From positions 22,196,001 through 22,260,000 of the forward strand of contig NC_043007.1 of assembly GCF_006345805.1 (NCBI RefSeq): a stretch of DNA of 64,000 nt, read 5' to 3'. A model generated the notes under the pieces. The model worked only from the letters and a program-made list of their open reading frames with translations, made no database searches and was not told the origin of the DNA. Numbering within the stretch: position 1 is the first letter of the stretch; each line of letters begins with the position of its first letter. Of the stretch, positions 9,088 through 60,910 are shown piece after piece. Position numbers and translations under genes: made by a program. Source of the stretch: Octopus sinensis. Its lineage: Eukaryota.

Positions 9088-9682
9088 TATTTCTTTATTG
9101 CCCACAAGGGGCTAAACACAGAGGGGACAAACAAGGACAAAGGGATTAAGTCAATTACATCGACCCCAGTGTGTAACTGGTACTTTATTTATCGACCCCG
9201 AAAGGATGAAAGGCAAAGTCGACTTCGGCGGATTTTGAACTCTGAACGTAGCGGCAGACGAAATACCTATTTCTTTACTACCCACAAGGGGCTAAACACA
9301 GAATGGACAAACAAGGTCAGACAAACGGATTAAGTCGATTATATCGATACCCAGTGCGTAACTGATACTTAATTTATCGACCCCGAAAGGATGAAAGGCA
9401 AAGTCGACCTCGGCGGAATTTGAACTCAGAACGTAACGACAGACGAAATACCTATTTCTTTACTACCCACAAGGGGCTAAACACAGAATGGACAAACAAG
9501 GTCAGACCAAGGGATTAAGTCGATTATATCGACCCCAGTGCGTAACTGGTACTTAATTTATCGACCCCGAAAGGATGAAAGGCAAAGTCGACCTCGGCGG
9601 AATTTGAACTCAGAACATAACGACAGACGAAATACCGCTAAGCATTTTCGCCCGGCGCGCTAAAGTGTCTGCCAGCTCGTCG
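9088..9682 (-). repeat. SINE family B head plus ~3 tandem ~184-bp units
   Basis: Reverse complement of the array at 1690-2280. Confidence 0.85.
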
Positions 9683-9974: not shown

Positions 9975-11740
9975 TATCAGGTCATTCCATAAGTTCTGTC
10001 CGATTTTACCTTCTTTAAAATTGAATGAAATTTAATAGTATTTTAGAATGTCTAATGGAATGAAAACTTATTTTTATGCATTTGTAACGGGAGAAATTGA
10101 TTTGTAAACGATATTATGAAATGTCGGAGTCAGCAGTTGTAACGATAAAAATTTGTTGTTATAATTGCATGTTGTAGGATATGAAAGATGAACAATGCAT
10201 GAAATTTTAAGGAGATATATATTTACCGATACGTTACAGTACCTTGCCTCGACGGGCAGGTTATGATAAATCCAAAAGCATGCGAAGTAAAGTTTGTGTT
10301 TGTCTCCTCTTCATTGTTTAGTAGTGATTACAGAGAGAGATAGAATGATGTAAGAGAACAGAATTAGAGCTAGTGAGAATTGTAGGGTGTTGTCTCACAG
10401 TTGCTGACGGTAAACTTCATTTCTCCCTTTGACCAAGGTTCTAGCCGGTCGGCCAGACTTCATTGTCCCTGAAGTGACTACCTGGTTGAGTGGTCGCCAT
10501 GTGACTGGACTCATTGAGTCGTCACCGACTGATTTTTGCTTGGGGTGTTCTTGTTTTTATAACTATCCAGAAGGACAGACATATCATTGAGAACAATAAA
10601 TTTAGTTGGTGGTCTTGTCATCTCTATTCTAGCCTTTGGCGAAGTAGAAGAGGTTAGAAAGGGTCAAGTGGTGAATATATTATTTCGGCCTAGCTAAAGG
10701 CATCTGGAAAATGTAAAACTGCTGTCAGAGAAAAAAAACAAAAAAAACATTGTTCCACCGTGGGAAAAGTTCTGTTGCAGTGTTAATTTAAATTTGGCTA
10801 TGGTGGATCGAATCCACTTCATGCTTGCAAGATCCACTACACATTTATGTACATTTAAACTAATTAAATATTATTTTACAGAATAATAGAATTAAAAATT
10901 CTTTGATTAAAATCCTTTCTAACATGGAAGTATCCAAAGAGCATTTGAGACACATAAAGGAAACTCTGCAGCCAAAGCGACTCGAAACATACACTCAGTT
11001 TATGGGAAAGAATGAAAGAACTTGCAGAAGATGGTTTGCAAAATTCAGAAGCGGAGATTTCAGCCTTGAAGATAAAGATCGAACAGGACGTCCAGTTGAG
11101 TTTGATGATAAACTCCTTGAGGCATTACTTAAAGAAAATCTTGCATTATCAGTTGAAGAATTGGCAATAAAGCTTAGTTCAAACCATACAACTGTTCATC
11201 GTCATCTTCAACAACTCGGAAAGATTCCTAAACTTAGAAAATGGGTGCCTCATGAATTGTCCGAAAGCAACCGCAAATCCCGAGTTGACATCTGCTCTTC
11301 ACTCCATTCTCGCAAACTCATTTCACCCTTTTTAGATAGACTTGTGACTGGTGACGAAAAATGGGTCTTCTATCGAAATGTTAAACGTCGTAAACAGAGG
11401 CTTGGTAAAAGGGAAAAAGCTCAACCACCCCCGAGAAGGGAATTTCATGGAAAAAATGTTCTTCTCTCTATCTGGTGGGATTGCAAAGGAGTAATTCACT
11501 TTGAATTGTTACCACATAATGCAACAATCAATGCTCAAGTCTACTGTCAGCGATTAGAGCATTTGAACCAAGCTTTGAAGAAAAAAATGACCCGCTTTAG
11601 TGAATCGAAAAGGAGTGATGTTTCATCAGGACAATGCGTGACTACACTGCAAAGATCACATCACAGAAGATCGAAGAACTTGGTTGGGAAAAACTTCCTC
11701 GTCCACCTTATTCTCCCGAACTTGCTCCTTCAGACTACTA
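9975..11740 (+). mobile_element. Mariner (DD34D) transposon relic, 3'-truncated; transposase pseudogene ~10924-11740
   Basis: Left TIR-like TATCAGGTCATTCCATAAGTTCTGTCCG; motifs WVPHEL, TGDEKW, HQDNA and YSPELAPSDY across frameshifts. Confidence 0.92.
10083..10841 (+). mobile_element. Solo LTR (759 bp, Gypsy-like) inserted in the mariner 5' region
   Basis: TGTAAC...CTACA termini; 4-bp TSD CATT; related sequence at ~35050-35880 and 37790-38039. Confidence 0.75.
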
Positions 11741-11869
11741 TATGGAACTCTGTCGATTGTGTGTGTGCATTTGTTCCCACCGGTTGAAAACCAGCGCTTG
11801 TTTGTATACACCTCTGTAACTTAGCGGTTCAACAACAGTTTGCACATAGAGACACGCACACACAGAACG

Positions 11870-13599: not shown

Positions 13600-15849
13600 G
13601 AGTAAAAAGATAAGCAGTTGGAAAGCAGCAGGACCTGATGGTGTATAGGGATCTTAGATAAAAAAAAAAAGAAGTTCAGTAGTTGCCATAAGTTGATCGC
13701 AGAACAATTTAATGCATTGATCAATGGAAATAAAATCGCGAGCTGGTTGACAACAGGACGAACGGTGTTGTGCCTGAAGGATACATTAAAAGGAAAATGT
13801 TGCTGACAATTACAGACCAATTTCCTGTCTCTCATTAATATGGAAGTTACTGTCAGGAGGAATTGCAGAAGAACTGTATAAATTTCTTGATGTGAACGAT
13901 ATATTACCGACGGAACAAAAAGGGTGTAGAAGGAGGTGCAGAGGTACCAAAGATCAACTGTTGATAGACAAAATGGTAATGCAAGATTGTAAACGAAGGA
14001 GAACAAATCTGGGAACGGCCTGGATTGACTATCGCAAAGCTTAGGATATGATTCCATATTCGTGGATCATCGAATGCTTAGATCTGTTTGGAATTGCGAG
14101 GACTGTAAAGTGTTTACCGAAGAGAAGTATTGTGGGATAGAAAACTGAAGTGACATTTTACGGAAAAACCTCGGGCACCCCGGGTATTAGAAGAGGGATT
14201 TTCCAGTGTGACAGCCTCTCTCTGTTGCTTTTCGTTCTCTGCATGATACCCCTGAACTTGGTACTCAGGAAAATGAACCTGGGGTACCAACTAAAGGAAA
14301 ACCCCAAACAATCAACCACCTCCTCTTCCTGGGTAATTTGAAACTGTATGGCAAAGATGAGATACAAGTGAGTTCCTTAATGAACACGGGCCACTGTCTT
14401 AGTACTGATATTAGAATGGAATTTGGACTCAAGAAGTACGGAGAAATCCACCTAAAAAGAAGTAAGGCACAATCCCTAGCAGAGATAGAATTATCGAACA
14501 GAGACTTAGTTAAGCAAATTGAAACGGAAGGATACAAATACCTTGGTGTACTAGGGTGCAACGAGATAACGGAAAAGGAAATGAAAGAGCAACTGAGGAT
14601 GGAGTATTTCCGAAGACTGAGGTTGGGGCTGCGCTCAAAAGTGACTGGATGCAATTAAATCCAAGCAATTAATACGTGGGCAATAGCATCACTTCGGTAT
14701 GGAGCGGGAATTATAAAATGGCAAAAGTGAGAAGTGAAGAAAATGGATACCAAGACCAGAAAACATGTTGGCAGTATACGGAGCTTTTCACCCTAAGAGT
14801 GACACCGATAGACTGTACTTGTCCTGAAGAAGAGGGTGGGAGAGGTTAGAATAGTTGCCAGGACTCTATCGAAGCAGAAAAAAAATGTTGTGAAGCCACT
14901 GTTGAAACACACGAAGAAGGCCGGCGCCATCAAAACTGAAAATTGTCTAATTAAAGAAAAATTTAAACAAGAGATGAACAAAAAAAAAAGAAAAGAAAAA
15001 AGAAAGAAAAAGCAGGGATGGGAAAAAATGTACGGTCAGTTTGCAAGAGATGTGAACGCCAAGACAGATACAGAGGAGCGGTGGATATGGATGAGGAGGA
15101 GTGACATGAAGATAGAGACACAAGCACTCATGCGCAGCTCAGGAACAAGTGTTAAGGACTAACTATGTGAAATGCAGAATTGACAACACTACCGATAGCG
15201 ACAAATGCAGATTGTGTGGTGAGAGGGGGTATGGCTCATCGTTAGCGAATGCCCGAAATTGGCACAACACGAATAGAAAATATGCGATGACAATGTGGCA
15301 AGAATGATTCATTGGGAGCTCTGTAGAAATCACAACTTACAAAGAGCAAAGACCGTGGTATGGACAAACTACAGGAGTCACCGTAAATGAGAATTGCAAA
15401 ATCCTGTGGGATGTAATGATCCAGTGCGATCACTTGACCAGACATAGGAAACCGGACACTGTTGTGGTAAATAAAAACAGAAAGAACATGTATGATTAGC
15501 GACATAGCATGCCCCGGTGACAACAGGATCAATGTGAAAGAAGAAAACATTAAAAAAAAACCCCAAAAACTACGACGATTTAAAGTGGGAAATACGAAGA
15601 TTGTGGTCAATGAAAAGAGTAGATGTGACACCAATAGTAATTAGTGTACTTGGAAGTATCAGCACTCAACTACCAACATGACCGAAAAAGTTCGGTGCAA
15701 GTGTGAAGGTGGATCAGCATTGCTTGAAACTGCAAGAATTCTTCATAGGGTTCTTGAAGCATGAGCAGTAAACAAGTGTCACCTTAGTCTGCTGGCAATG
15801 GACAGCTAGCACTTTCCATAATATCGAGCAAAATAAGCTCTGAGTTTTC

Positions 15850-15850
<1 letters not shown>
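13600..15850 (+). mobile_element. R4/Dong-clade non-LTR retrotransposon relic (RT + CCHC + restriction-like endonuclease), frameshifted
   Basis: [36 protein letters not shown] and RKPD motifs; lies between an (AAC/AAG/AAT)n tract and a (TAA)n tract. Confidence 0.88.
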
Positions 15851-15914
<64 letters not shown>

Positions 15915-15918
<4 letters not shown>

Positions 15919-17210
15919 AAGAGAAAATCAGGAAGGAATGTTATAGGAGAGTTCGTGCAGTCCTGAAATCTGAACTAAATGCACGTAACAAGGTGTTAGC
16001 TATAAATTCCTTAGCAGTTCCAGTTGTTACTTATAGCTACAATGTGTTGAACTGGAATATGAGTGAAGTAAAGAATATAGATAGAAAAATACGCAAGCTG
16101 CTGAGTTGTAATAGGATGCACCACCCAAAGGCAGACGTAGATCGCCTTTACCTTCCCAGAGCCCAAGGAGGTCGAGGCCTGATCCAATTTGAACTAGCTT
16201 ACAAAACAACCACAATTGGACTGGCCAAATATCTCGAAATATCGAATGACTGGATGCTAAAGCTCGTGGAAAATCACGAGAGACGAAAGAAGCTTCATTC
16301 TATCATAAAGGAAAGCAAAAAATTTGCTATTGATCTCGTGCAGGATACCCAAACTGAACAACTCGAGGGAAGTACGGCAACTATTGTTGCAAAGAAGGTG
16401 AAAATGATGGCAATGAAAAAAGCGCACGAGCAATTGGCTGATAGGTGGGAGGAGAAACCTCTGCACGGCAAATATGTGACCCGCAGCAAACAAGCTGATG
16501 TTGACCAGAAGCAAACCCATCAGTGGCTACGGAGCTCAGGGCTAAAAGCAGAGAGCGAAGGTTTCATCCTGGCTGCTCAAGATCAAAGCCTATTAACCCG
16601 GAACTACCAGGCCAATGTGATGAAAAATGGAGCAGACCCAAAATGCCGATTCTGCAACGACATGATTGAAACAGTGGACCACCTAATGTCTGGATGTAAA
16701 GTCTTAGCACCCGTGGAGTATAAATTAAGACATGACAGAGTTGGCCAATATCTCCACTGGCTAATAAGTCGGCATTACAATATCAAAACTGCCGACAAGT
16801 GGTATAATCACCACCCTGAGGCTGTAACTGAAGGAGAAAATGTAACCATTCTGTGGGACTTTCCAGTACATACACACCGAACCATCAAGGCCAATAAACC
16901 AGATATTGTTGTGAAAGACCAAAACAATAAAGTTTACTTATTGATCGACATGAGCATCCCCTGTGATCATAATATCTCAGCGAAAGAGTTTGACAAGCTC
17001 AGAAAATATAAAGACCTACTCATTGAAATTGAGAAAATGTGGCATCTCAAGGCGGTTACAATACCAGTGATCGTAGGAGCACTAGGAATGATCAAGAAGG
17101 GAACCGAAAATTATATGAGAATGATCCCTGGCTTACCATCCCTGCAAGAAGTGCAAAAGATTGTCTTAACTGGTACATCACACGTATTGAGAAGAGCATT
17201 GTCGATGTGA
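15915..17210 (+). mobile_element. 5'-truncated R4/Dong-clade LINE with an uninterrupted 431-aa C-terminal ORF (thumb, CCHC knuckle, PD-(D/E)xK endonuclease)
   Basis: CRFC...H...C, RHD, WDF, KPDIV...LIDM...K..KY motifs; flanked by (TAA)n at 15852-15915 and ~17380-17432. Confidence 0.92.
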
Positions 17211-30040: not shown

Positions 30041-31315
30041 TTAGCGGTATTTCGTCTGCCGCTACGTTCTGAGTTCAAATTCCGCCGAGATCGACTTTGC
30101 TTTTCATCCTTTCGGGGTCGATTAAATAAGTACCTGTTAGGCACTGGGGTCGATATAATCGACTCCATCCGTTTGTCTGTCCTTGTTTGTCTCCTCTGTG
30201 TTTAGCCCCATGTAGGTAGTAAAGAAATAAGTATTTCGTCTGTCTTTACGTTTTGAGTTAAAATTCCGCCGTGGTCGACTTTGCCTTTCATCCTTTCGGG
30301 GTCGATAAATTTAGTAGCAGTTGCGTACTGGGGTCGACATAATCGACTCCATCCATTTGTCTGTCCTTGTTTGTCCTCTCTGTGTTTAGCCCCATGTAGG
30401 TAGTAAAGAAATAAGTATTTCGTCTATCTTTACGTTTTGAGTTAAAATTCCGCGGTGGTCGACTTTGCCTTTCATCCTTTCGGGGTCGATAAATTTAGTA
30501 GCAGTTGCGTACTGGGGTCGACATAATCGACTCCATCCGTTTGTCTGTCCTTGTTTGTCCTCTCTGTGTTTAGCCCCATGTAGGTAGTAAAGAAATAGGT
30601 TTTTCGTCTATCTTTACGTTTTGAGTTAAAATTCCGCGGTGGTCGACTTTGCCTTTCATCCTTTCGGGGTCGATAAATTTTGTAGCAGTTGCGTACTGGG
30701 GTCGACATAATCGACTCCATCCGTTTGTCTGTCCTTGTTTGTCCTCTCTGTGTTTAGCCCCATGTAGGTAGTAAAGAAATAAGTATTTCGTCTATCTTTA
30801 CGTTTTGAGTTAAAATTCCGCGGTAGTCGACTTTGCCTTTCATCCTTTCGGGGTCGATAAATTTAGTAGCAGTTGCGTACTGGGGTCGACATAATCGACT
30901 CCATCCGTTTGTCTGTCCTTGTTTGTCCTCTCTGTGTTTAGCCCCATGTAGGTAGTAAAGAAATAGGTTTTTCGTCTATCTTTACGTTTTGAGTTAAAAT
31001 TCCGCGGTGGTCGACTTTGCCTTTCATCCTTTCGGGGTCGATAAATTTTGTAGCAGTTGCGTACTGGGGTCGACATAATCGACTCCATCCGTTTGTCTGT
31101 CCTTGTTTGTCCTCTCTGTGTTTAGCCCCATGTAGGTAGTAAAGAAATAGGTATTTCGTCTATCTTTACGTTTTGAGTTAAAATTCCGCGGTGGTCGACT
31201 TTGCCTTTCATCCTTTCGGGGTCGATAAATTTTGTAGCAGTTGCGTACTGGGGTCGAGCTAATCGACTGGCACCCTCCCCAAAGATTTCGGGCCTTGAGC
31301 CTAGAGTAGAAAAGT
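30040..31315 (+). repeat. Tandem array of ~6.5 SINE-B-derived 184-bp units in intron 2
   Basis: Identical spurious ORFs 368 bp apart (30472, 30840) show the period and a dimeric higher-order pattern. Confidence 0.92.
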
Positions 31316-35037: not shown

Positions 35038-35360
35038 AGTGTGTGTGTGTGTGTGACGGCTTTTGACGGTGGGGTCACCAATTCTAACGGTGTTAGACAC
35101 CGGAGTCATCAATTGTAGCGGAGCGGTTACCAAAATGTAGCTGGTGTGATGTTGAAGAAGAGAAAGATGATGTAAATGTCGTTGTGTTGGGCTTGAAGGA
35201 ATAAGGACAGTGGTCCAAGTTGTAGATAACATATTTGTGCTGTTACATATAATCGTTTCCTAACCACGACGGGTAGGTGTGTATGAAAGCAATCCGGAAA
35301 GCATGCGAAGTAAAGAGAGTTATCGTTTCGTGTATAAATGGATAGCGTAAGATCTACATA

Positions 35361-35775: not shown

Positions 35776-35920
35776 TATGTCTCGGGTCATTTAAGCAGCA
35801 GATGGAGAGAGTCAGAGTGATGTTGTAGAAGAGAAAGATGAGCTAGTGAGACAGTAAGAGGTGGGACGAGACAACTGTATTGTTGGTGAGTTCCCATAGT
35901 CGTCCTTCTGTGACGTTACT

Positions 35921-36853
35921 TCAGTTGAGACGGCGTTTCGTTGAGCCTGTCAGCCTACTCCCATGTGGGTCATGTTCTTGTACTTGTGACGGCGTTCTCC
36001 CAGGGCGGGTTGAGCCGGCTTCTCTTGTCCTGACGGCATCACGAACCATGGCGGACCATGCTCGACGGTCCTGTACGAGGTCACTGGAGATAGCGAGCCA
36101 TTCGCGGTTCCATCTGCACAGAACGACCACCTGTGGACCTGACAGTTCGGAGAGGTCCTCCTTTATCGTCGTTGCCCAGGTCTTCAGCTGCCCGCCCGTG
36201 TGTTTGCGCCAGTTGGGAAGTGGAAGTAAGAGGAGGATATCGCGAATCAGCTCACCCTCTGGACACCGGGCCGCATGACCGAACCACTTTAAGCGCCGTT
36301 GTAGAAGCACCGAAGGGAGGGGCCGGAGATTCAGACGATGACGAAGACCGGCTGTAGGAACCCGATCAATGCGTCGACAGCGAAGAATGCGGCGGAAACA
36401 GTCACTGTCGGACACCTCCAGCCTTCGCTGGTCGACTACCCCCATAGGCCATGTTTCACAACCATAGAGGAGGATAGTACGAACGACGGCCTGGTAGATT
36501 CGCCCTTTGGTCACCGAGGAGATCTCTCTTCTGTCCCAGAGGCACCGCTGGTGGCGCACGAATGCAGATCTGGCAGCACCTATGCGACGCTCGACCTCGG
36601 CTGCACCCTGGCCCGTTGGAACCACCGTTGAACCCAGATAGACGAAGGACTCCACATCCTCCGACTTCACGCCCTCGAGAACGATTGGCCGCCAGTCATC
36701 TGCTGCAATCAGAGACGTCATCACTTTGGTTTTGCCAGCATCGATCCGAAGACGAACAGCTGCCGTTGCCGCATGCACCTTTTCGAAAGCATCTTGGACA
36801 TCTGCCCGGTTAGAGCCCAAGAGCGCGATGTCATCTGCGTAGGCCAGGTCCAT
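35921..36853 (-). mobile_element. RTE-clade LINE, 5'-truncated RT C-terminal ORF (310 aa)
   Basis: LAYADDI, FVYLGS, LLYGCETW, RLKWFGH and QDRRAW motifs. Confidence 0.92.
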
Positions 36854-37112
36854 GTGGGTCGATTCTCACTAAGTGATATTTCACCACGGAATTCTAGTAT
36901 TTATAATTGTGCAGACTAGCTAGGAAAAGAGGTATACCGTTGTAACAATGGTTAAATTAATGTAGGTCACTCATTATTTATTTCAACTTTTCATGGCATA
37001 GAAAAGAGTCAAGTGGAAGACACATTCGTGCTTGACAATAGGCTGTATGGCTAAGGAGGATTTCTAGATTCGATTTCGAATCTCAAGTAAGGCCAAGTGG
37101 GGTATGTATATG

Positions 37113-37195
<83 letters not shown>

Positions 37196-37211
37196 TGTGT
37201 GTGTGTGTGTG

Positions 37212-37260
<49 letters not shown>

Positions 37261-37590
37261 GTACAACGTGAGATAGGGCTTATGAGTGGGATATCAGTTA
37301 TCCAATATACTGCCAGTGAAGTACCCAAAAGGCTAATACATAAATGCTTACAATTGCAATGCAATTATTTCATTTATTGTATTATATGTGCGAAGGTAAG
37401 ATGTGTTACCGCAAAATCATAATACAAATAAGAAAACGGAGGAACAGATTCCTCTCAATCATCAACTTACAGATATTACCAATTCATATTATTTATTCAC
37501 TACATAAACAGGTACATCCAAATCCAACAGAATAAAACAATATACATCAATAAGTAAGATAATACCATAAAAATAATACATATAAAATGG

Positions 37591-37718
37591 ATCTTACAGC
37601 TGTTTCAGCCTGTAGATAAAAATATCTCATTGTGCCTATATTAGTCATATGTATTGTGGTAATATGCACTTAAAAACGAGTTACTTATATATATATATCC
37701 CAAGGCCTCGTCAGAGAT
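37591..37718 (-). ncRNA. Type I hammerhead ribozyme motif (minimal palindromic stem III, ~90-nt stem II insert)
   Basis: AUCU CUGACGA GGCCU [91 nt] AGGCU GAAA CAGCUG UA^ AGAU. Confidence 0.75.
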
Positions 37719-37789
37719 TATAAAGTACAATTGTAAAAATATAAAATGCAAATATAAAGAACAACTATGGTATATCGCAAACGAAGCAG

Positions 37790-38039
37790 TTATTTCGTCC
37801 CACACTCTCTCGCTAGTTCACAACATCACTCTTACAACATCACTCTATCTATTTCTGTGGATTACTGCTAAGACAATGTGTACACACACTATACAAGAAA
37901 AATCAAGGTTTACTTCGCATGCTTTACGATTTTATCACCTGCTCGTCGAGGTAAGGTATTATATAATGTAACGGGTAAAAATATTTCCTTAAAACTTCAT
38001 GCATTGTTCATCTTTCACATCTTACAACTTGCCGTTACA
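37790..38039 (-). mobile_element. LTR 5' fragment related to 10083-10841
   Basis: Reverse-complement match to ~10160-10290 and beyond; starts TGTAAC on the minus strand. Confidence 0.7.
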
Positions 38040-38109
38040 AATTAATTCCAACCGTTACACAAAATTAATCTTTCATCCTTACACACACACACGCACGCAC
38101 GCACACACA

Positions 38110-38177
<68 letters not shown>

Positions 38178-38207
38178 AAAATAAGCAACAAAAATGACTC
38201 CGGTAAT

Positions 38208-38293
38208 TTGGTACAATCGTTTCGTACTACATCATTTTATTAAATGTTGTAAGTATTACAACAGTTTTAAAATGCTGAACACTCATCAGCCAA
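38208..38293 (-). ncRNA. Type I hammerhead ribozyme motif with a long paired stem II
   Basis: UUGG CUGAUGA GUG...UAC GAAA CGAUUG UA^ CCAA; stem II includes CAUUUUA/UAAAAUG and UGUUGUAA/UUACAACA. Confidence 0.82.
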
Positions 38294-38519
38294 TACAAAA
38301 GTTTTCAAATCAAGTGGCAACATTATAGAGAAGGTAGCTATACAGACAAAGATGTAGATTTAAATTTTAAGAACATATGAGGTAGTGAAGTCCTTCCACT
38401 GACTGACCAAGATATGGCTGTTCCTAACTGCTATAAGGTTAGAAGTAATAAAGATTTTTTAATTGTAGAAATGGGGTAAATATATATATACGCCACACTT
38501 GGTTGGCAATTATATGTTA

Positions 38520-38825: not shown

Positions 38826-39143
38826 TCATAAGAAAATTAAAATTATCTAATATAGTGGCGTTTTCAAACTTCTTTTTTTACAAATATATATATATATATA
38901 TATATAATATATATATATATAATTAATTCTAGTATTATAATTGTGCAGACTAGCTAGGAAAAGAGTATACCGTTGTAACAATGGTTAATTAATGTAGGTC
39001 ACTCATTATTTATTTCAACTTTTCATGGCATAGAAAAGAGTCAAGTGGAAGACACATTCGTGCTTGACAATAGGCTGTATGGCTAAGGAGGATTTCTAGA
39101 TTCGATTCGAATCTCAAGTAAGGCCAAGTGGGGTATGTATATG

Positions 39144-39292
<149 letters not shown>

Positions 39293-39849
39293 ATAGTACA
39301 ACGTGAGATAGGGCTTATGAGTGGGATATCAGTTATCCAATATACTGCCAGTGAAGTACCCAAAAGGCTAATACATAAATGCTTACATTGCAATGCAATT
39401 ATTTCATTTATTGTATTATATGTGCGAAGGTAAGATGTGTTACCGCAAAATCATAATATATATATTTATAAATAAGGATAATATCGATATTTAAATATCG
39501 ATATTATCAAGTGGCCAGCATGGGAAAAATACCATACAAAGGTAATAATTTTTTTTACAACTAATGTATATATAGCGGTTGTATACTGTCAACTTAACGT
39601 GACAGTCCCGTAAAGGGAATCACACGACCACTATTTAGCCCTAGGAAGCATCGACGCTTCCTGTCGGCTTTGACACATTTCCTGTGTCCTTATATTTACG
39701 AAGGGGAGACAGTTAAGCACCAGTCAAATACTGGTTCGATGTAATCGGCATGTCTCCTAAAAGACTGTTGGCATTGAACCCTACAATGGACTGGCGTCTC
39801 GTTCGGTGAGGGGAGGTGCCCAGGTCACTTATACTCCATTGAAACTGGC

Positions 39850-42154: not shown

Positions 42155-42765
42155 GGATTAAGTCGATTACATCGACCCCAGTGCGTAACTGGTACTTAAT
42201 TTATCGACCCCGGTATTTCGTCTGCCGCTACGTTCTGAGTTCAAATTCCGCCGAGGTCGACTTCGCCTCTCATCCTTTCGGGGTCGATTAAATAAGTACC
42301 AGTTACGCACTGGGGTCGATATAATCGACTTAATCCGTTTGTCTGTCCTTGTTTGTCCCCTCTGTGTTTAGCCCCTTGTGGGTAGTAAAGAAATAGGTAT
42401 TTCATTTGCCGTTACGTTCTGAGTTCAAATTCCGCCGAGGTCGACTTTGCCTTTCATCCTTTCGGGGTCGATTAAATAAGTACCAGTTACGTACTGGGGT
42501 CGATATAATCGACTTAATCCGTTTGTCTGTCCTTGTTTGTCTTCTCTGTATTTCGTAACTGGTACTTAATTTATCGACCCCGTAACTACCTGTAACGTTT
42601 GTCTGTCCTTGTTTGTCTTCTCTGTATTTCGTAACTGGTACTTAATTTATCGACCCCGGTATTTCGTCTGCAATTACGTTCTGAGTTCAAATTCCACCGA
42701 GGTCGACTTTGCCTTTCATCCTTTCGGATGTTTAGCCCCTTGTGGGTAGTAAAGAAATAGGTATT
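42155..42765. repeat. Rearranged SINE family B cluster with mixed orientations
   Basis: Tandem units interleaved with inverted CGTAACTGGTACTTAATTTATCGACCCC pieces. Confidence 0.8.
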
Positions 42766-47319: not shown

Positions 47320-50300
47320 TGATTTTATTTCCGTATAACTTCCAGAAAAATGGATATTTTTCAATGAAATTTTCTACAAATACGCTTCAAAAATAATTCC
47401 TTGGTTGGGGAGAGGCGTTTCGGAGAATTCATACGAGTCGGCTTCACTTCCTTATAACTTCCAGAAAAATGGATATTTTTCAATGAAATTTTCTACAAAT
47501 ACGCTTCAAAAATAATTCCTTAGGTGGGGAGAGGCGTTTCGGAGAATTCATACGTGTCGGCTTTATTTCCTTATAACTTCCAGAAAAATGGATATTTTTC
47601 AATGAAATTTTCTACAAATACGCTTCAAAAATAATTCCTTGGTTGGGGAGAGGGGTTTCGGAGAATTCATAAGAGTCGGTTTCACTTCCTTATAACTTCC
47701 AGAAAAATGGATATTTTTCAATGAAATTTTCTACAAATACGCTTAAAAAATAATTCCTTAGGTGGGAGAGGCGTTTCGGAGAATTCATACGTGTCGGCTT
47801 TATTTCCTTATAACTTCCAGAAAAATGGATATTTTTCAATTAAATTTTCTACAAATACGCTTCAAAAATAATTCCTTGGTTGGGGATAGGCGTTTCGGAG
47901 AATTCATACGAGTCGACTTTATTTCCTTATAACTTCCAGAAAAATTGATATTTTTCAATGAAATTTTCTACAAATACGCTTCAAAAATAATTCCTTAGGT
48001 GGGGAGAGGCGTTTCGGAGAATTCATACGAGTCGGCTTCACTTCCTTATAACTTCCAGAAAAATGGATATTTTTCAATGAAATTTTCTACAAATACGCTT
48101 CAAAAATAATTCCTTGGTTGGGGAGAAGGGTTTCGGAGAATTCATACGAGTCGGCTTCACTTCCTTATAACTTCCAGAAAAATGGATATTTTTCAATGAA
48201 ATTTTCTACAAATACGCTTAAAAAATAATTCCTTAGGTGGGGAGAGGCGTTTCGGAGAATTCATACGAGTCGGCTTCACTTCCTTATAACTTCCAGAAAA
48301 ATGGATATTTTTCAATGAAATTTTCTACAAATACGCTTCAAAAATAATACCTTGGGTGGAGAGAGGCGTTTTGGAGAATTCATAAGAGTCGGCTTTATTT
48401 CCTCATAACTTCCAGAAAAATGGATATTTTTCAATGAAATTTTCTACAAATACGCTTAAAAAATAATTCCTTGGTTGGGGAGAGGGATTTCGGAGAATTC
48501 AAACGAGTCGGCTTTAGTTCCTTATAACTTCCAGAAAAATGGATATTTTTCAATGAAATTTTCTACAAATACGCTTCAAAAATAGTTCCTTGGTTGGGGA
48601 GAGGCGTTTCGGAGAATTCATACGAGTCGGCTTCACTTCCTTATAACTTCCAGAAAAATGGATATTTTTCAATGAAATTTTCTACAAATACGCTTCAAAA
48701 ATAATTCCTTGGTTGGGGAGAAGGGTTTCGGAGAATTCATACGAGTCGGCTTCACTTCCTTATAACTTCCAGAAAAATGGATATTTTTCAATGAAATTTT
48801 CTACAAATACGCTTCAAAAATAATTCCTTGGTTGGGGAGAAGGGTTTCGGAGAATTCATACGAGTCGGCTTCACTTCCTTATAACTTCCAGAAAAATGGA
48901 TATTTTTCAATGAAATTTTCTACAAATACGCTTAAAAAATAATTCCTTAGGTGGGGAGAGGCGTTTCGGAGAATTCATACGAGTCGGCTTCACTTCCTTA
49001 TAACTTCCAGAAAAATGGATATTTTTCAATGAATTTTCTACAAATACGCTTCAAAAATAATACCTTGGGTGGAGAGAGGCGTTTTGGAGAATTCATAAGA
49101 GTCGGCTTTATTTCCTCATAACTTCCAGAAAAATGGATATTTTTCAATGAAATTTTCTACAAATACGCTTAAAAAATAATTCCTTGGTTGGGGAGAGGGA
49201 TTTCGGAGAATTCAAACGAGTCGGCTTTAGTTCCTTATAACTTCCAGAAAAATGGATATTTTTCAATGAAATTTTCTACAAATACGCTTCAAAAATAGTT
49301 CCTTGGTTGGGGAGAGGCGTTTCGGAGAATTCATACGAGTCGGCTTCACTTCCTTATAACTTCCAGAAAAATGGATATTTTTCAATGAAATTTTCTACAA
49401 ATACGCTTCAAAAATAATTCCTTGGTTGGGGAGAAGGGTTTCGGAGAATTCATACGAGTCGGCTTCACTTCCTTATAACTTCCAGAAAAATGGATATTTT
49501 TCAATGAAATTTTCTACAAATACGCTTCAAAAATAGTTTCTTCGTTGGGGAGAGGCGTTTCGGAGAATTCATACGAGTCGGCTTTATTTCCTTATAACTT
49601 CCAGAAAAATGGATATTTTTCAATGAAATTTTCTACAAATACGCTTAAAAAATAATTCCTTAGGTGGGGAGAGGCGTTTCGGAGAATTCATACGTGTCGG
49701 CTTTATTTCCTTATAACTTCCAGAAAAATGGATATTTTTCAATGAAATTTTCTACAAATACGCTTCAAAAATAATTCCTTGGTTGGGGAGAGGCGTTTCG
49801 GAGAATTCATACGAGTCGGCTTTATTTCCTTATAACTTCCAGAAAAATGGATATTTTTCAATGAAATTTTCTACAAATACGCTTCAAAAATAATTCCTTG
49901 GTTGGGGAGAGGCGTTTCGGAGAATTCATACGAGTCGGCTTCACTTCCTTATAACTTCCAGAAAAATGGATATTTTTCAATGAAATTTTCTACAAATACG
50001 CTTCAAAAATAATTCCTTGGTTGGGGAGAGGCGTTTCGGAGAATTCATACGAGTCGGCTTCACTTCCTTATAACTTCCAGAAAAATGGATATTTTTCAAT
50101 GAAATTTTCTACAAATACGCTTCAAAAATAGTTTCTTGGTTGGGGAGAGGCGTTTCGGAGAATTCATACGAGTCGGCTTTATTTCCTTATAACTTCCAGA
50201 AAAATTGATATTTTTCAATGAAATTTTCTACAAATACGCTTCAAAAATAATTCCTTAGGTGGGGAGAGGCGTTCGGAGAATTCATACGAGTCGGCTTTAT

Positions 50301-52240
50301 TCCTTATAACTTCCAGAAAAATGGATATTTTTCAATGAAATTTTCTACAAATACGCTTCAAAAATAATTCCTTGGTTGGGGAGAGGCGTTTCGGAGAATT
50401 CATACGAGTCGGCTTTATTCCTTATAACTTCCAGAAAAATGGATATTTTTCAATGAAATTTTCTACAAATACGCTTCAAAAATAATTCCTTGGTTGGGGA
50501 GAGGCGTTTCGGAGAATTCATACGTGTCGGCTTTATTTCCTTATAACTTCCAAAAAATGGATATTTTTCAATGAATTTTCTACAAATACGCTTCAAAAAT
50601 AATTCCTTGTTGGGGAGAGGCGTTTCGGAGAATTCATAAGAGTCGGTTTCACTTCCTTATAACTTCCAGAAAAATGGATATTTTTCAATGAAATTTTCTA
50701 CAAATACGCTTAAAAAATAATTCCTTAGGTGGGAGAGGCGTTTCGGAGAATTCATACGTGTCGGCTTTATTTCCTTATAACTTCCAGAAAAATGGATATT
50801 TTTCAATGAAATTTTCTACAAATACGCTTCAAAAATAGTTTCTTGGTTGGGGAGAGGCGTTTCGGAGAATTCATACGAGTCGGCTTTATTTCCTTATAAC
50901 TTCCAGAAAAATTGATATTTTTCAATGAAATTTTCTACAAATACGCTTAAAAAATAATTCCTTAGGTGGGGAGAGGCGTTTCGGAGAATTCATACGAGTC
51001 GGCTTTATTTCCTTATAACTTCCAGAAAAATGGATATTTTTCAATGAAATTTTCTACAAATACGCTTCAAAAATAATTCCTTGGTTGGGGAGAGGCGTTT
51101 CGGAGAATTCATACGAGTCGGCTTCACTTCCTTATAACTTCCAGAAAAATGGATATTTTTCAATGAAATTTTCTACAAATACGCTTCAAAAATAATTCCT
51201 TGGTTGGGGAGAGGCGTTTCGGAGAATTCATACGAGTCGGCTTCACTTCCTTATAACTTCCAGAAAAGTGAATATTTTTCAATGAAATTTTCTACAAATA
51301 CGCTTCAAAAATCCTTAGGTGGGGAGAGGCGTTTCGGAGAATTGATACGAGTCGGCTTTATTTCCTTATAACTTCCAGAAAAATGGATATTTTTCAATGA
51401 AATTTTCTACAAATACGCTTCAAAAATAATACCTTGGGTGGAGAGAGGCGTTTTGGAGAATTCATAAGAGTCGGCTTTATTTCCTCATAACTTCTAGAAA
51501 AATGGATATTTTTCAATGAAATTTTCTACAAATACGCTTCAAAAATAATTCCTTGGTTGGGGAGAGGGATTTCGGAGAATTCAAACGAGTCGGCTTTAGT
51601 TCCTTATAACTTCCAGAAAAATGGATATTTTTCAATGAAATTTTCTACAAATACGCTTCAAAAATAATTCCTTAGGTGGGGAGAGGCGTTTCGGAGAATT
51701 CATACGTGTCGGCTTTATTTCCTTATAACTTCCAGAAAAATGGATATTTTTCAATGAAATTTTCTACAAATACGCTTCAAAAATAATTCCTTGGTTGGGG
51801 AGAGGGGTTTCGGAGAATTCATAAGAGTCGGTTTCACTTCCTTATAACTTCCAGAAAAATGGATATTTTTCAATGAAATTTTCTACAATACGCTTCAAAA
51901 ATAATTCCTTAGGTGGGAGAGGCGTTTCGGAGAATTCATACGTGTCGGCTTTATTTCCTTATAACTTCCAGAAAAATGGATATTTTTCAATGAAATTTTC
52001 TACAAATACGCTTCAAAAATAGTTCCTTGGTTGGGGAGAGGCGATTCGGAGAATTCATACGAGTCGGCTTCACTTCCTTATAACTTCCAGAAAAATGGAT
52101 ATTTTTCAATGAAATTTTCTACAAATACGCTTCAAAAATAGTTCCTTGGTTGGGGAGAGGCGTTTCGGAGAATTCATAAGAGTCGGCTTTATTTCCTTAA
52201 AACTTCCAGAAAAATGAATATTTTTCAACGAAATTTTCTC
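47320..52240. repeat. Satellite array, 119-bp monomer, ~41 copies
   Basis: CTTATAACTTCCAGAAAAATGG recurs at 47451, 47570 and onward; monomers are highly similar and have no unique spacers. Confidence 0.97.
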
Positions 52241-52564
52241 CATATACATTTCGAATGGTTTTGAGCAGGAGTCGGGGAACTCTTTCAACCAATTACCTCA
52301 AAATATATTTATTTATGCCGACGTTACCCACTTGATTTGAAAGGAAGAAAATCATAGATTCTTTTAATTCAAACCTTTTTGTGAATCTATTTGCAATATA
52401 ATCTATTATGAATATAAAAAGTATAAAACAAATGCAATAAAATAAATTAATATCCTCAGTATGATCCAAAAGGATTTTTCTAGAAACTTTTTCACTTCAG
52501 GTGTTGGAGAAATGATGTTTCGTTTCTTTTTTTTTCTTTTTCTTTATTCTTTCTTTCTTTTATT

Positions 52565-60271: not shown

Positions 60272-60604
60272 CTGAAAGTCCTCTCCCACTTTAGTAGGAT
60301 GTTTAACGTTTTCGTTGAAGACATAAGGCGCTTGTCTCCAAGGACGTGTTCCACGCAGTGAAAAAGGAAGAACAGCTACAGGAAATATATCCATAAACTT
60401 TTACATGGACTACTAATATTCGGACAAACGAAAGCCCGTACCAGATTCAGTTTGTTAGCCAGAGCACAACCGCTGTTGATTTTCTTTTTCTTTTTTTTTT
60501 TTTTGCGTGTGTGTCCGGGATAATTACGCACCTACACACCTCTGTGTCATTTTTGACCTTACATACCTCACTCCCTGTTTCTCATATTTGAACGTAAGCG
60601 CAAC

Positions 60605-60719
60605 ATGTCTCTCATCCGAAATTTCAGCACTTCGTCTCAAGCAGAAGCGGACTCAAGCAAGAAAGTGTTGGTCCTCTACACTGGTGGAACCATTGGTATG
60701 AAACGAGACACGAATGGAA
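60605..60719 (+). CDS. ASPG: L-asparaginase / 60-kDa lysophospholipase, first coding exon (gene likely continues beyond the window)
   Basis: MSLIRNFSTSSQAEADSSKKVLVLYTGGTIGMKRDTNG contains the type I asparaginase catalytic-Thr motif TGGTIGM; CAAC-ATG context; upstream in-frame TGA at 60554; phase-1 donor GTATGT at 60720. Confidence 0.88.
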
Positions 60720-60910
60720 GTATGTTATTTTCTGTTTATTATCCGGTTTCACTATTTCTGTTGATTCATACTCCTACTCTTTCTCTTTCTCCCCCCCTCT
60801 CTCTCTCTCTTCCATTTTATGCCTATGTCTTTGATTGTATAACTGAGAAAAAAAATATACGCAATTATGTGAACGCACTCACACACATGTTCATTTATAA
60901 TGAGTAAACT

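Follow-up and report, generated by a model that had tools for sequence, protein, structure and literature searches.

A type I hammerhead motif with a tandemly duplicated stem II hairpin in an abundant, probably Penelope-like repeat family

The window analysed here, a stretch of 64,000 nucleotides, carries on its minus strand a real type I hammerhead motif (38208..38293), whose self-cleavage is predicted only. The 59-nt stem II of this motif consists of a 28-nt hairpin duplicated in tandem. The hammerhead belongs to a very abundant, high-copy repeat family, and its long arm is a trait of that family. With moderate confidence, we propose that this type I motif lies near the 3' end of a Penelope-like repeat and that the doubled hairpin is tolerated baggage that weakens cleavage. 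Hammerheads have been described before in Penelope-like elements (PLEs).

The hammerhead motif

Three helices surround the core of the motif, and stem I is open, as type I requires. Its parts are the following:

38290..38293, minus strand: 5' strand of stem I, UUGG, which pairs with CCAA (sequence)
38283..38289, minus strand: catalytic core CUGAUGA (sequence)
38224..38282, minus strand: stem II domain, 59 nt, either a rod (22 bp) or twin hairpins (folding)
38220..38223, minus strand: core GAAA, G12-A15.1 (sequence)
38219-38214, minus strand: CGAUUG, followed by U16.1 (38213) and A17 (38212) (sequence)
38213..38220, minus strand: stem III, an 8-nt near-palindrome, 2 bp in the monomer and 8 bp in the dimer
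between 38212 and 38211, minus strand: expected cleavage site, 3' of A17 in the GUA triplet (from the hammerhead consensus)
38208..38211, minus strand: 3' strand of stem I, CCAA (sequence)

Stem I has 4 bp; CUGANGA and GAAA of the core, the NUH triplet and the A15.1-U16.1 pair are all present. The basal helix of stem II has 5 bp (three Watson-Crick, two G.U) with the closing pair G10.1-C11.1, the middle helix (7 bp) and the distal helix (8 bp) are entirely Watson-Crick, and the rod totals 22 pairs. Both the canonical core with its G10.1-C11.1 closing pair and the stem II of about 59 nt with three named helices (5, 7 and 8 bp), described in the original prediction, are present in the sequence on the minus strand, a strand that the prediction left unnamed. 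By analogy with a lizard Penelope-like element (below), an open reading frame beginning at the AUG within the core was considered and dropped: it ends after 18 codons (read by eye).

A hammerhead descriptor designed after the motif was seen, allowing a stem II of up to 150 nt, gave two matches in the 64-kb window, and the same two under five relaxations; among 600 resampled windows it gave one match (six when relaxed), i.e. about 0.002 expected per window. With a general long-arm pattern, matches to the core only were found at no fewer than 121 metagenome loci (21 of 64 parts scanned) and 13 viral loci; none of these 134 combines a stem I of at least 4 bp with a stem II of at least 4 bp, and none is a convincing hammerhead. 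Rfam returned no hammerhead match at the gathering threshold (0 matches), nor was there any among the ten matches up to an E-value of 10.

Duplication and folding of the stem II arm

Most of the stem II domain is taken up by two similar units:

38253..38279, minus strand: duplication unit 1, 27 nt, self-complementary together with the preceding 3 nt
38224..38251, minus strand: duplication unit 2, 28 nt, identical to unit 1 in 21 of 28 columns

The alignment score of the two units was reached by 0 of 2000 dinucleotide shuffles and by 1 of 2000 shuffles that preserve the rod; Tandem Repeats Finder does not report the duplication. Each unit is a hairpin by itself. Doubling a hairpin is enough to let it pair as a rod, and good pairing of the arm is therefore no sign of selection. 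The same applies to the closed interior of the rod, which is more stable than its shuffles (z -4.2, 1/1000): the duplication yields this value, so selection is not needed for it. Divergence after the duplication did not favour the rod either, since 92 of the 128 possible reassignments of the seven differences between the units favour it no less than the actual sequence does. Selected structure is not supported by the good pairing, which tandem duplication explains, and two-sided changes in stem II were not seen (below).

Only the rod sets G10.1-C11.1 beside GAAA; the twin hairpins leave GAAA about 29 nt off. For stem II alone, the energy model favours the twin hairpins (-11.7 vs -10.6 kcal/mol), with near-equal ensembles of rod and twin hairpins (-12.1 and -12.6 kcal/mol). 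The expected "well paired" stem II thus holds in that 22 pairs are possible as a rod, but not in that the rod would be the lowest-energy fold. In the whole motif, too, the rod is not the lowest-energy fold: the probability of the G10.1-C11.1 pair is 0.002, the free fold hides each half of the core inside a local hairpin, and the energy model gives an active monomer a probability of about 2e-5.

Arms of a single unit (30-31 nt) score better for the active dimer than the doubled arm: the energy of the dimer minus that of the free fold is -4.4 and -3.6 kcal/mol for the former and +0.8 kcal/mol for the latter; the respective probabilities of the 10.1-11.1 pair are 0.35 and 0.04 vs 0.002. An arm of 5 bp with a tetraloop scores worse (+3.6 kcal/mol), so shortening is not simply better. 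A double hammerhead joined through the palindrome lies within 1 kcal/mol of two free monomers, and the best free fold of two strands about 9 kcal/mol below the double hammerhead. These differences of 1-5 kcal/mol come from an energy model that omits tertiary contacts, Mg2+ and protein. On this model, the doubled arm is predicted to weaken self-cutting, not to improve it, and the continued activity thought possible in the original prediction would require dimerisation.

The repeat family and variation among its copies

Contigs of four public sequencing runs were aligned to 38176-38500 for a survey of the family. Three runs yielded 1146, 1420 and 438 matching contigs and the fourth only one; summed contig depth was not taken as copy number. 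Five of the contigs listed cross the whole 59-nt stem II without a gap, with 12-19 other letters. No contig joint skips any part of stem II and no single-unit (pre-duplication) copy was seen among the family contigs, which drop rare variants, as a short form might be. The long-stem-II variant family that had been predicted is therefore real in the sense that high-copy contigs keep the long arm. A family-specific pattern had 0 matches in metagenome contigs.

Ten sites of the motif vary at 3% or more, with pairing kept at eight and broken at two; in stem II, five of seven variant sites keep pairing, and no two-sided (compensatory) change was found among the sites varying in family contigs. Among the 40 of 42 variant rows listed, no core position varies at 3% or more, with lower cover over CUGAUGA; this invariance is weak, as ten variable sites would miss the 13 core positions among 86 by chance about once in five (hand estimate). 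At stem III site 38215, the majority letter (82-85% of depth) makes the palindrome perfect (self-duplex -10.0 vs -5.8 kcal/mol); within stem III, a second letter (13-17%) would produce a different perfect palindrome, provided that the changes are linked, linkage being invisible in contigs. C11.1 is replaced by U in 11-34%, which turns its pair into G.U. No variants are listed for G12, which belongs to the same CpG, or for the CpG at 38201-38202, so this looks like differences between subfamilies rather than decay. Taken together, the pattern weakly favours a function of the core and stem III, not of the arm.

In run X3, two contigs connect 38223 with 38294 across opposite strands, a layout that inverted Penelope-type junctions might produce. 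Run X1, guessed to be RNA, does not cover the motif at 38208..38293.

Copy boundaries and the link to Penelope-like elements

The copy that holds the motif, and its tail, are delimited as follows:

38176..38480, minus strand: repeat copy holding the motif, apparently 5'-truncated at 38480 (alignment of contigs)
38176..38211, minus strand: 3' tail; family copies stop near 38178 in varied AT-rich flanks

This copy sits between a short TA run and a (TG)n tract at 38081-38175. It seems 5'-truncated because the loose ends of other copies run past 38480. At 38178, loose ends of 16, 11 and 7 contigs gather in three runs (agreement 0.56-0.69; TA-rich), which places the common 3' end of the family some 35-40 nt beyond the predicted cut. 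According to the available text of PMC8557442, Penelope-like elements have a tail of 30-40 bp and microsatellite targets, and those of the Hydra clade prefer (TA)n targets; in four Hydra-clade consensi of the same source, counted by hand, the distance from cut to end is 36, 46, 47 and about 97 nt.

The repeat shares the palindromic stem III of PLE hammerheads, the position of the site near a 3' end with a tail of 30-40 bp and the microsatellite-type targets. None of the 14 open reading frames tested near the motif, from 48 listed, encodes a reverse transcriptase or GIY-YIG domain. With no such frame attached, it is the end signature that carries the Penelope link; in a 5'-truncated copy the absence of these frames says nothing about the family, which is not classed here as a member of the Hydra clade. 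Tandem units of the retrozyme type (150-450 bp, each with a hammerhead) were looked for, and the window holds one copy only. Judged from sequence, the family is likely a Penelope-like element or a non-coding derivative of one.

The second hammerhead and the neighbourhood

The other descriptor match lies on the same strand:

37591..37718, minus strand: second type I hammerhead (descriptor match), 575 nt from the first
37714-37708, minus strand: CUGACGA
37707-37607, minus strand: stem II, 101 nt
37606-37603, minus strand: GAAA

It has a perfect 8-nt palindrome and a GUA triplet, and its cut site can be covered by pairing with the 3' strand of stem II. Matching contigs number 618, 729, 453 and 16 in the four runs, with high depth from 37431 to about 37731. 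The two hammerheads of the window do not align as relatives, and the second belongs to a separate, unrelated high-copy family; a heterodimer of the two was rejected, as their palindromes differ. No internal duplication was found in the 101-nt arm (1152 of 2000 shuffles reach its score), nor is the arm more stable than shuffles (z -0.4). Among the 40 of 56 variant rows listed, three G.U pairs of this copy become Watson-Crick with the majority letters, and one frequent change disrupts a pair. In one contig, 37611 is linked to 37684 by bases of unknown identity; this may represent either a short arm or an arm that has diverged. A tandem junction was looked for in this family and not demonstrated. 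Run X1 contains near-identical contigs over 37435-37860, spanning the second hammerhead.

Both hammerheads are flanked by a direct repeat:

36890..37430, no strand assigned: left copy of a direct repeat of about 540 bp
38925..39464, no strand assigned: right copy of the same repeat

Outside microsatellites, the only differences between the copies are five insertions of one letter each in the left one, and the copies represent either a very recent duplication or an assembly artefact. Examined as pseudo-LTRs, they contain neither hammerhead. They enclose a 1.5-kb pile of repeat fragments and adjoin a truncated reverse transcriptase frame (35921-36865); a perfect 32-bp palindrome (39477-39508) lies just outside the right copy. 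An identical 16-nt motif occurs in three diverged repeat fragments, at 37909-37924 (minus), 10276-10291 (plus) and 35299-35314 (plus). At 37760-37812 (minus) and 35862-35915 (plus), a hairpin and a potential NUH come after GGGAC-GAAA/GAGA, with no CUGANGA stem II to match; this may be an eroded permuted hammerhead. Elsewhere the window contains a 119-bp satellite of 41.5 copies (47324-52247), a 184-185-bp unit in four arrays (1739-2259, 9088-9636, 30047-31268 and 42212-42553), a likely asparaginase exon (60557-60907, plus), a mariner-type transposase fragment (10864-11787, plus) and a LINE 3' fragment (15837-17210, plus).

Evaluation of possible explanations

In the explanation that we favour, the hairpin of an ancestor with a stem II of about 30 nt would have doubled before the family spread. 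The doubled arm would fold as a rod (active) or as twin hairpins (inactive), and the monomer is predicted to stay in the off-folds. Cleavage at 38212/38211 would need the rod as well as dimerisation via the stem III palindrome, perhaps with the help of a protein, and would be slow because of this double requirement. Slow cleavage would cost little: since insertions keep the tail past the cut, their template was probably RNA that was uncut or had been rejoined, used by a Penelope-type enzyme at TA-rich targets. For the lizard Penelope-like element PAc, the available text of PMC11167929 reports uncut RNA as the main substrate and a ribozyme that needs protein. Several findings speak against this explanation. 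The neighbouring unrelated family is also long-armed, without duplication, and eight of ten variant sites keep pairing, both of which fit selection for long arms; moreover, no pre-duplication copy turned up among the family contigs, and in one Hydra-clade consensus about 97 nt separate the cut from the end.

As long arms arose at least twice, explanations by selection stay alive. It is rather unlikely, in our estimate, that the duplication was selected as a damping switch, in which the choice between rod and twin hairpins throttles cleavage, so that more uncut, tailed RNA reaches the Penelope enzyme, and that this drove the success of the family. The two folds within 0.5 kcal/mol of each other, the buried core halves, the hairpin over the cut site in the second hammerhead and the lack of single-unit copies among contigs would all suit such a switch; near-equal energies, however, are expected of any hairpin duplication, and fixation could be a founder effect. 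Slightly less likely still is a rod maintained as a structural arm of an active ribozyme, e.g. as a platform for the Penelope protein or through a tertiary contact with stem I. The z-score of the closed rod interior, the pairing kept at most variant sites of stem II and the long arms of two unrelated families argue for it, as do the majority letters of the second family that make three G.U pairs Watson-Crick (shares 0.48-0.63, about 0.9 and 1.0). On the other hand, that z-score follows from the duplication, stem II has no two-sided change, most reassignments of the unit differences are as good, and the second arm does not exceed its shuffles in stability and has one pair broken by a majority-level change.

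We regard as improbable, and slightly more so than these two, that the duplication killed the ribozyme and left the motif as a passive relic at the end of an element no longer needing it. The minute predicted share of active monomers fits this, ribozyme mutants still inserted in vitro (PMC11167929, available text), and conservation may reflect common descent in a family that looks young; but subfamily-level changes avoid the core, variation affects C11.1 (to G.U) and spares G12 of the same CpG, stem III switches between palindromic forms and the dimer lies within 1 kcal/mol of free folds. A chance assembly of motifs in AT-rich DNA has a post hoc descriptor and the silence of Rfam in its favour, and is refuted by two observed matches against one in 600 resampled windows and by the family-wide core, palindrome and common end. 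A broader proposal joins two claims: that the hairpin duplication is a natural two-state switch, selected to hold back cleavage until a dimer forms or the Penelope protein binds, and that long arms of several origins mark a large class of animal retroelement ribozymes unseen by descriptors and Rfam. As a whole we consider it rather unlikely.

Both motifs of this window (2/2), and with them entire high-copy families, escape published descriptors and Rfam, and hammerhead counts in animal genomes are therefore likely to be low. The doubled and the single-unit arm, or the rod and the twin hairpins, offer a natural test pair for the question of whether elements gain from slow cleavage. They also advise caution, as a long, well-paired arm can arise by duplication alone.

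Comparison with known systems

The min-HHR descriptor of 2014 (PMC4209133, Fig. S7) sets stem II at 3-7 bp, loop 2 at 3-10 nt and the 3' part at 'gaaannuh'; the present motif falls outside it through its 59-nt stem II domain and through six nucleotides, instead of two, between GAAA and UH. Craig et al. 2021 (PMC8557442) searched with a spacer of 7-17 nt, and the available text remarks on half-cores 35-50 nt apart. The suspicion that length-limited searches could miss the motif was thus justified, as the stem II and loop 2 limits of the former and the spacer of the latter exclude a 59-nt arm.

The Hydra-clade PLE hammerheads of Craig et al. 2021, as far as the available parts of PMC8557442 describe them, are likewise of type I, with a short stem I, a stem III of at most 4 bp and often A17; their elements also have (TA)n targets, and in three of the four consensi counted end 36-47 nt after the cut. 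They differ in a stem II of at most 26 nt (our own count, File S2), in a stem III loop of 1-3 nt and in the coding frame, linked there and not here. The octopus family Hydra-1_Obim belongs to these elements, but its 3' end is another sequence (by eye). The metazoan PLE min-HHRs of Cervera and de la Pena 2014 share G10.1-C11.1, the 4-bp stem I and the palindromic stem III, and Saccoglossus(2) is the nearest in layout; in the alignment rows of PMC4209133 their stem II domains reach about 23 nt, and the present motif departs from them in loop 2 and stem III length. They are described there as dimer-dependent and of low activity, and PLE hammerheads are reported, in the text available, to be without the tertiary contact that joins loops 1 and 2 in canonical hammerheads.

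A long loop 2 is also found in the spike-moss PLE-X1 hammerheads of PMC8557442 File S2 (35 nt, with a domain of about 53 nt, and 29 nt), so arm length alone is not new; these, however, come from a plant, are marked as deviating from canonical, and no duplication is described for them in the rows of that file examined. Metazoan non-LTR retrozymes (PMC7229834; bioRxiv 10.64898/2026.07.22.740005) are similarly non-coding and high-copy, carry type I hammerheads and are proposed Penelope derivatives, according to the parts available; solo monomers are common among them. They differ by tandem units and a helix II of 4 bp, in contrast to the single copy seen here and to a family most of whose copies end just past the ribozyme. 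A literature search, with some supplements and two key 2017 papers outside its scope, found no duplicated stem II and no long-arm animal hammerhead. The motif is best read as a Penelope-type hammerhead with a stem II doubled by tandem duplication, in which the PLE hammerhead is known and the duplicated arm is new.
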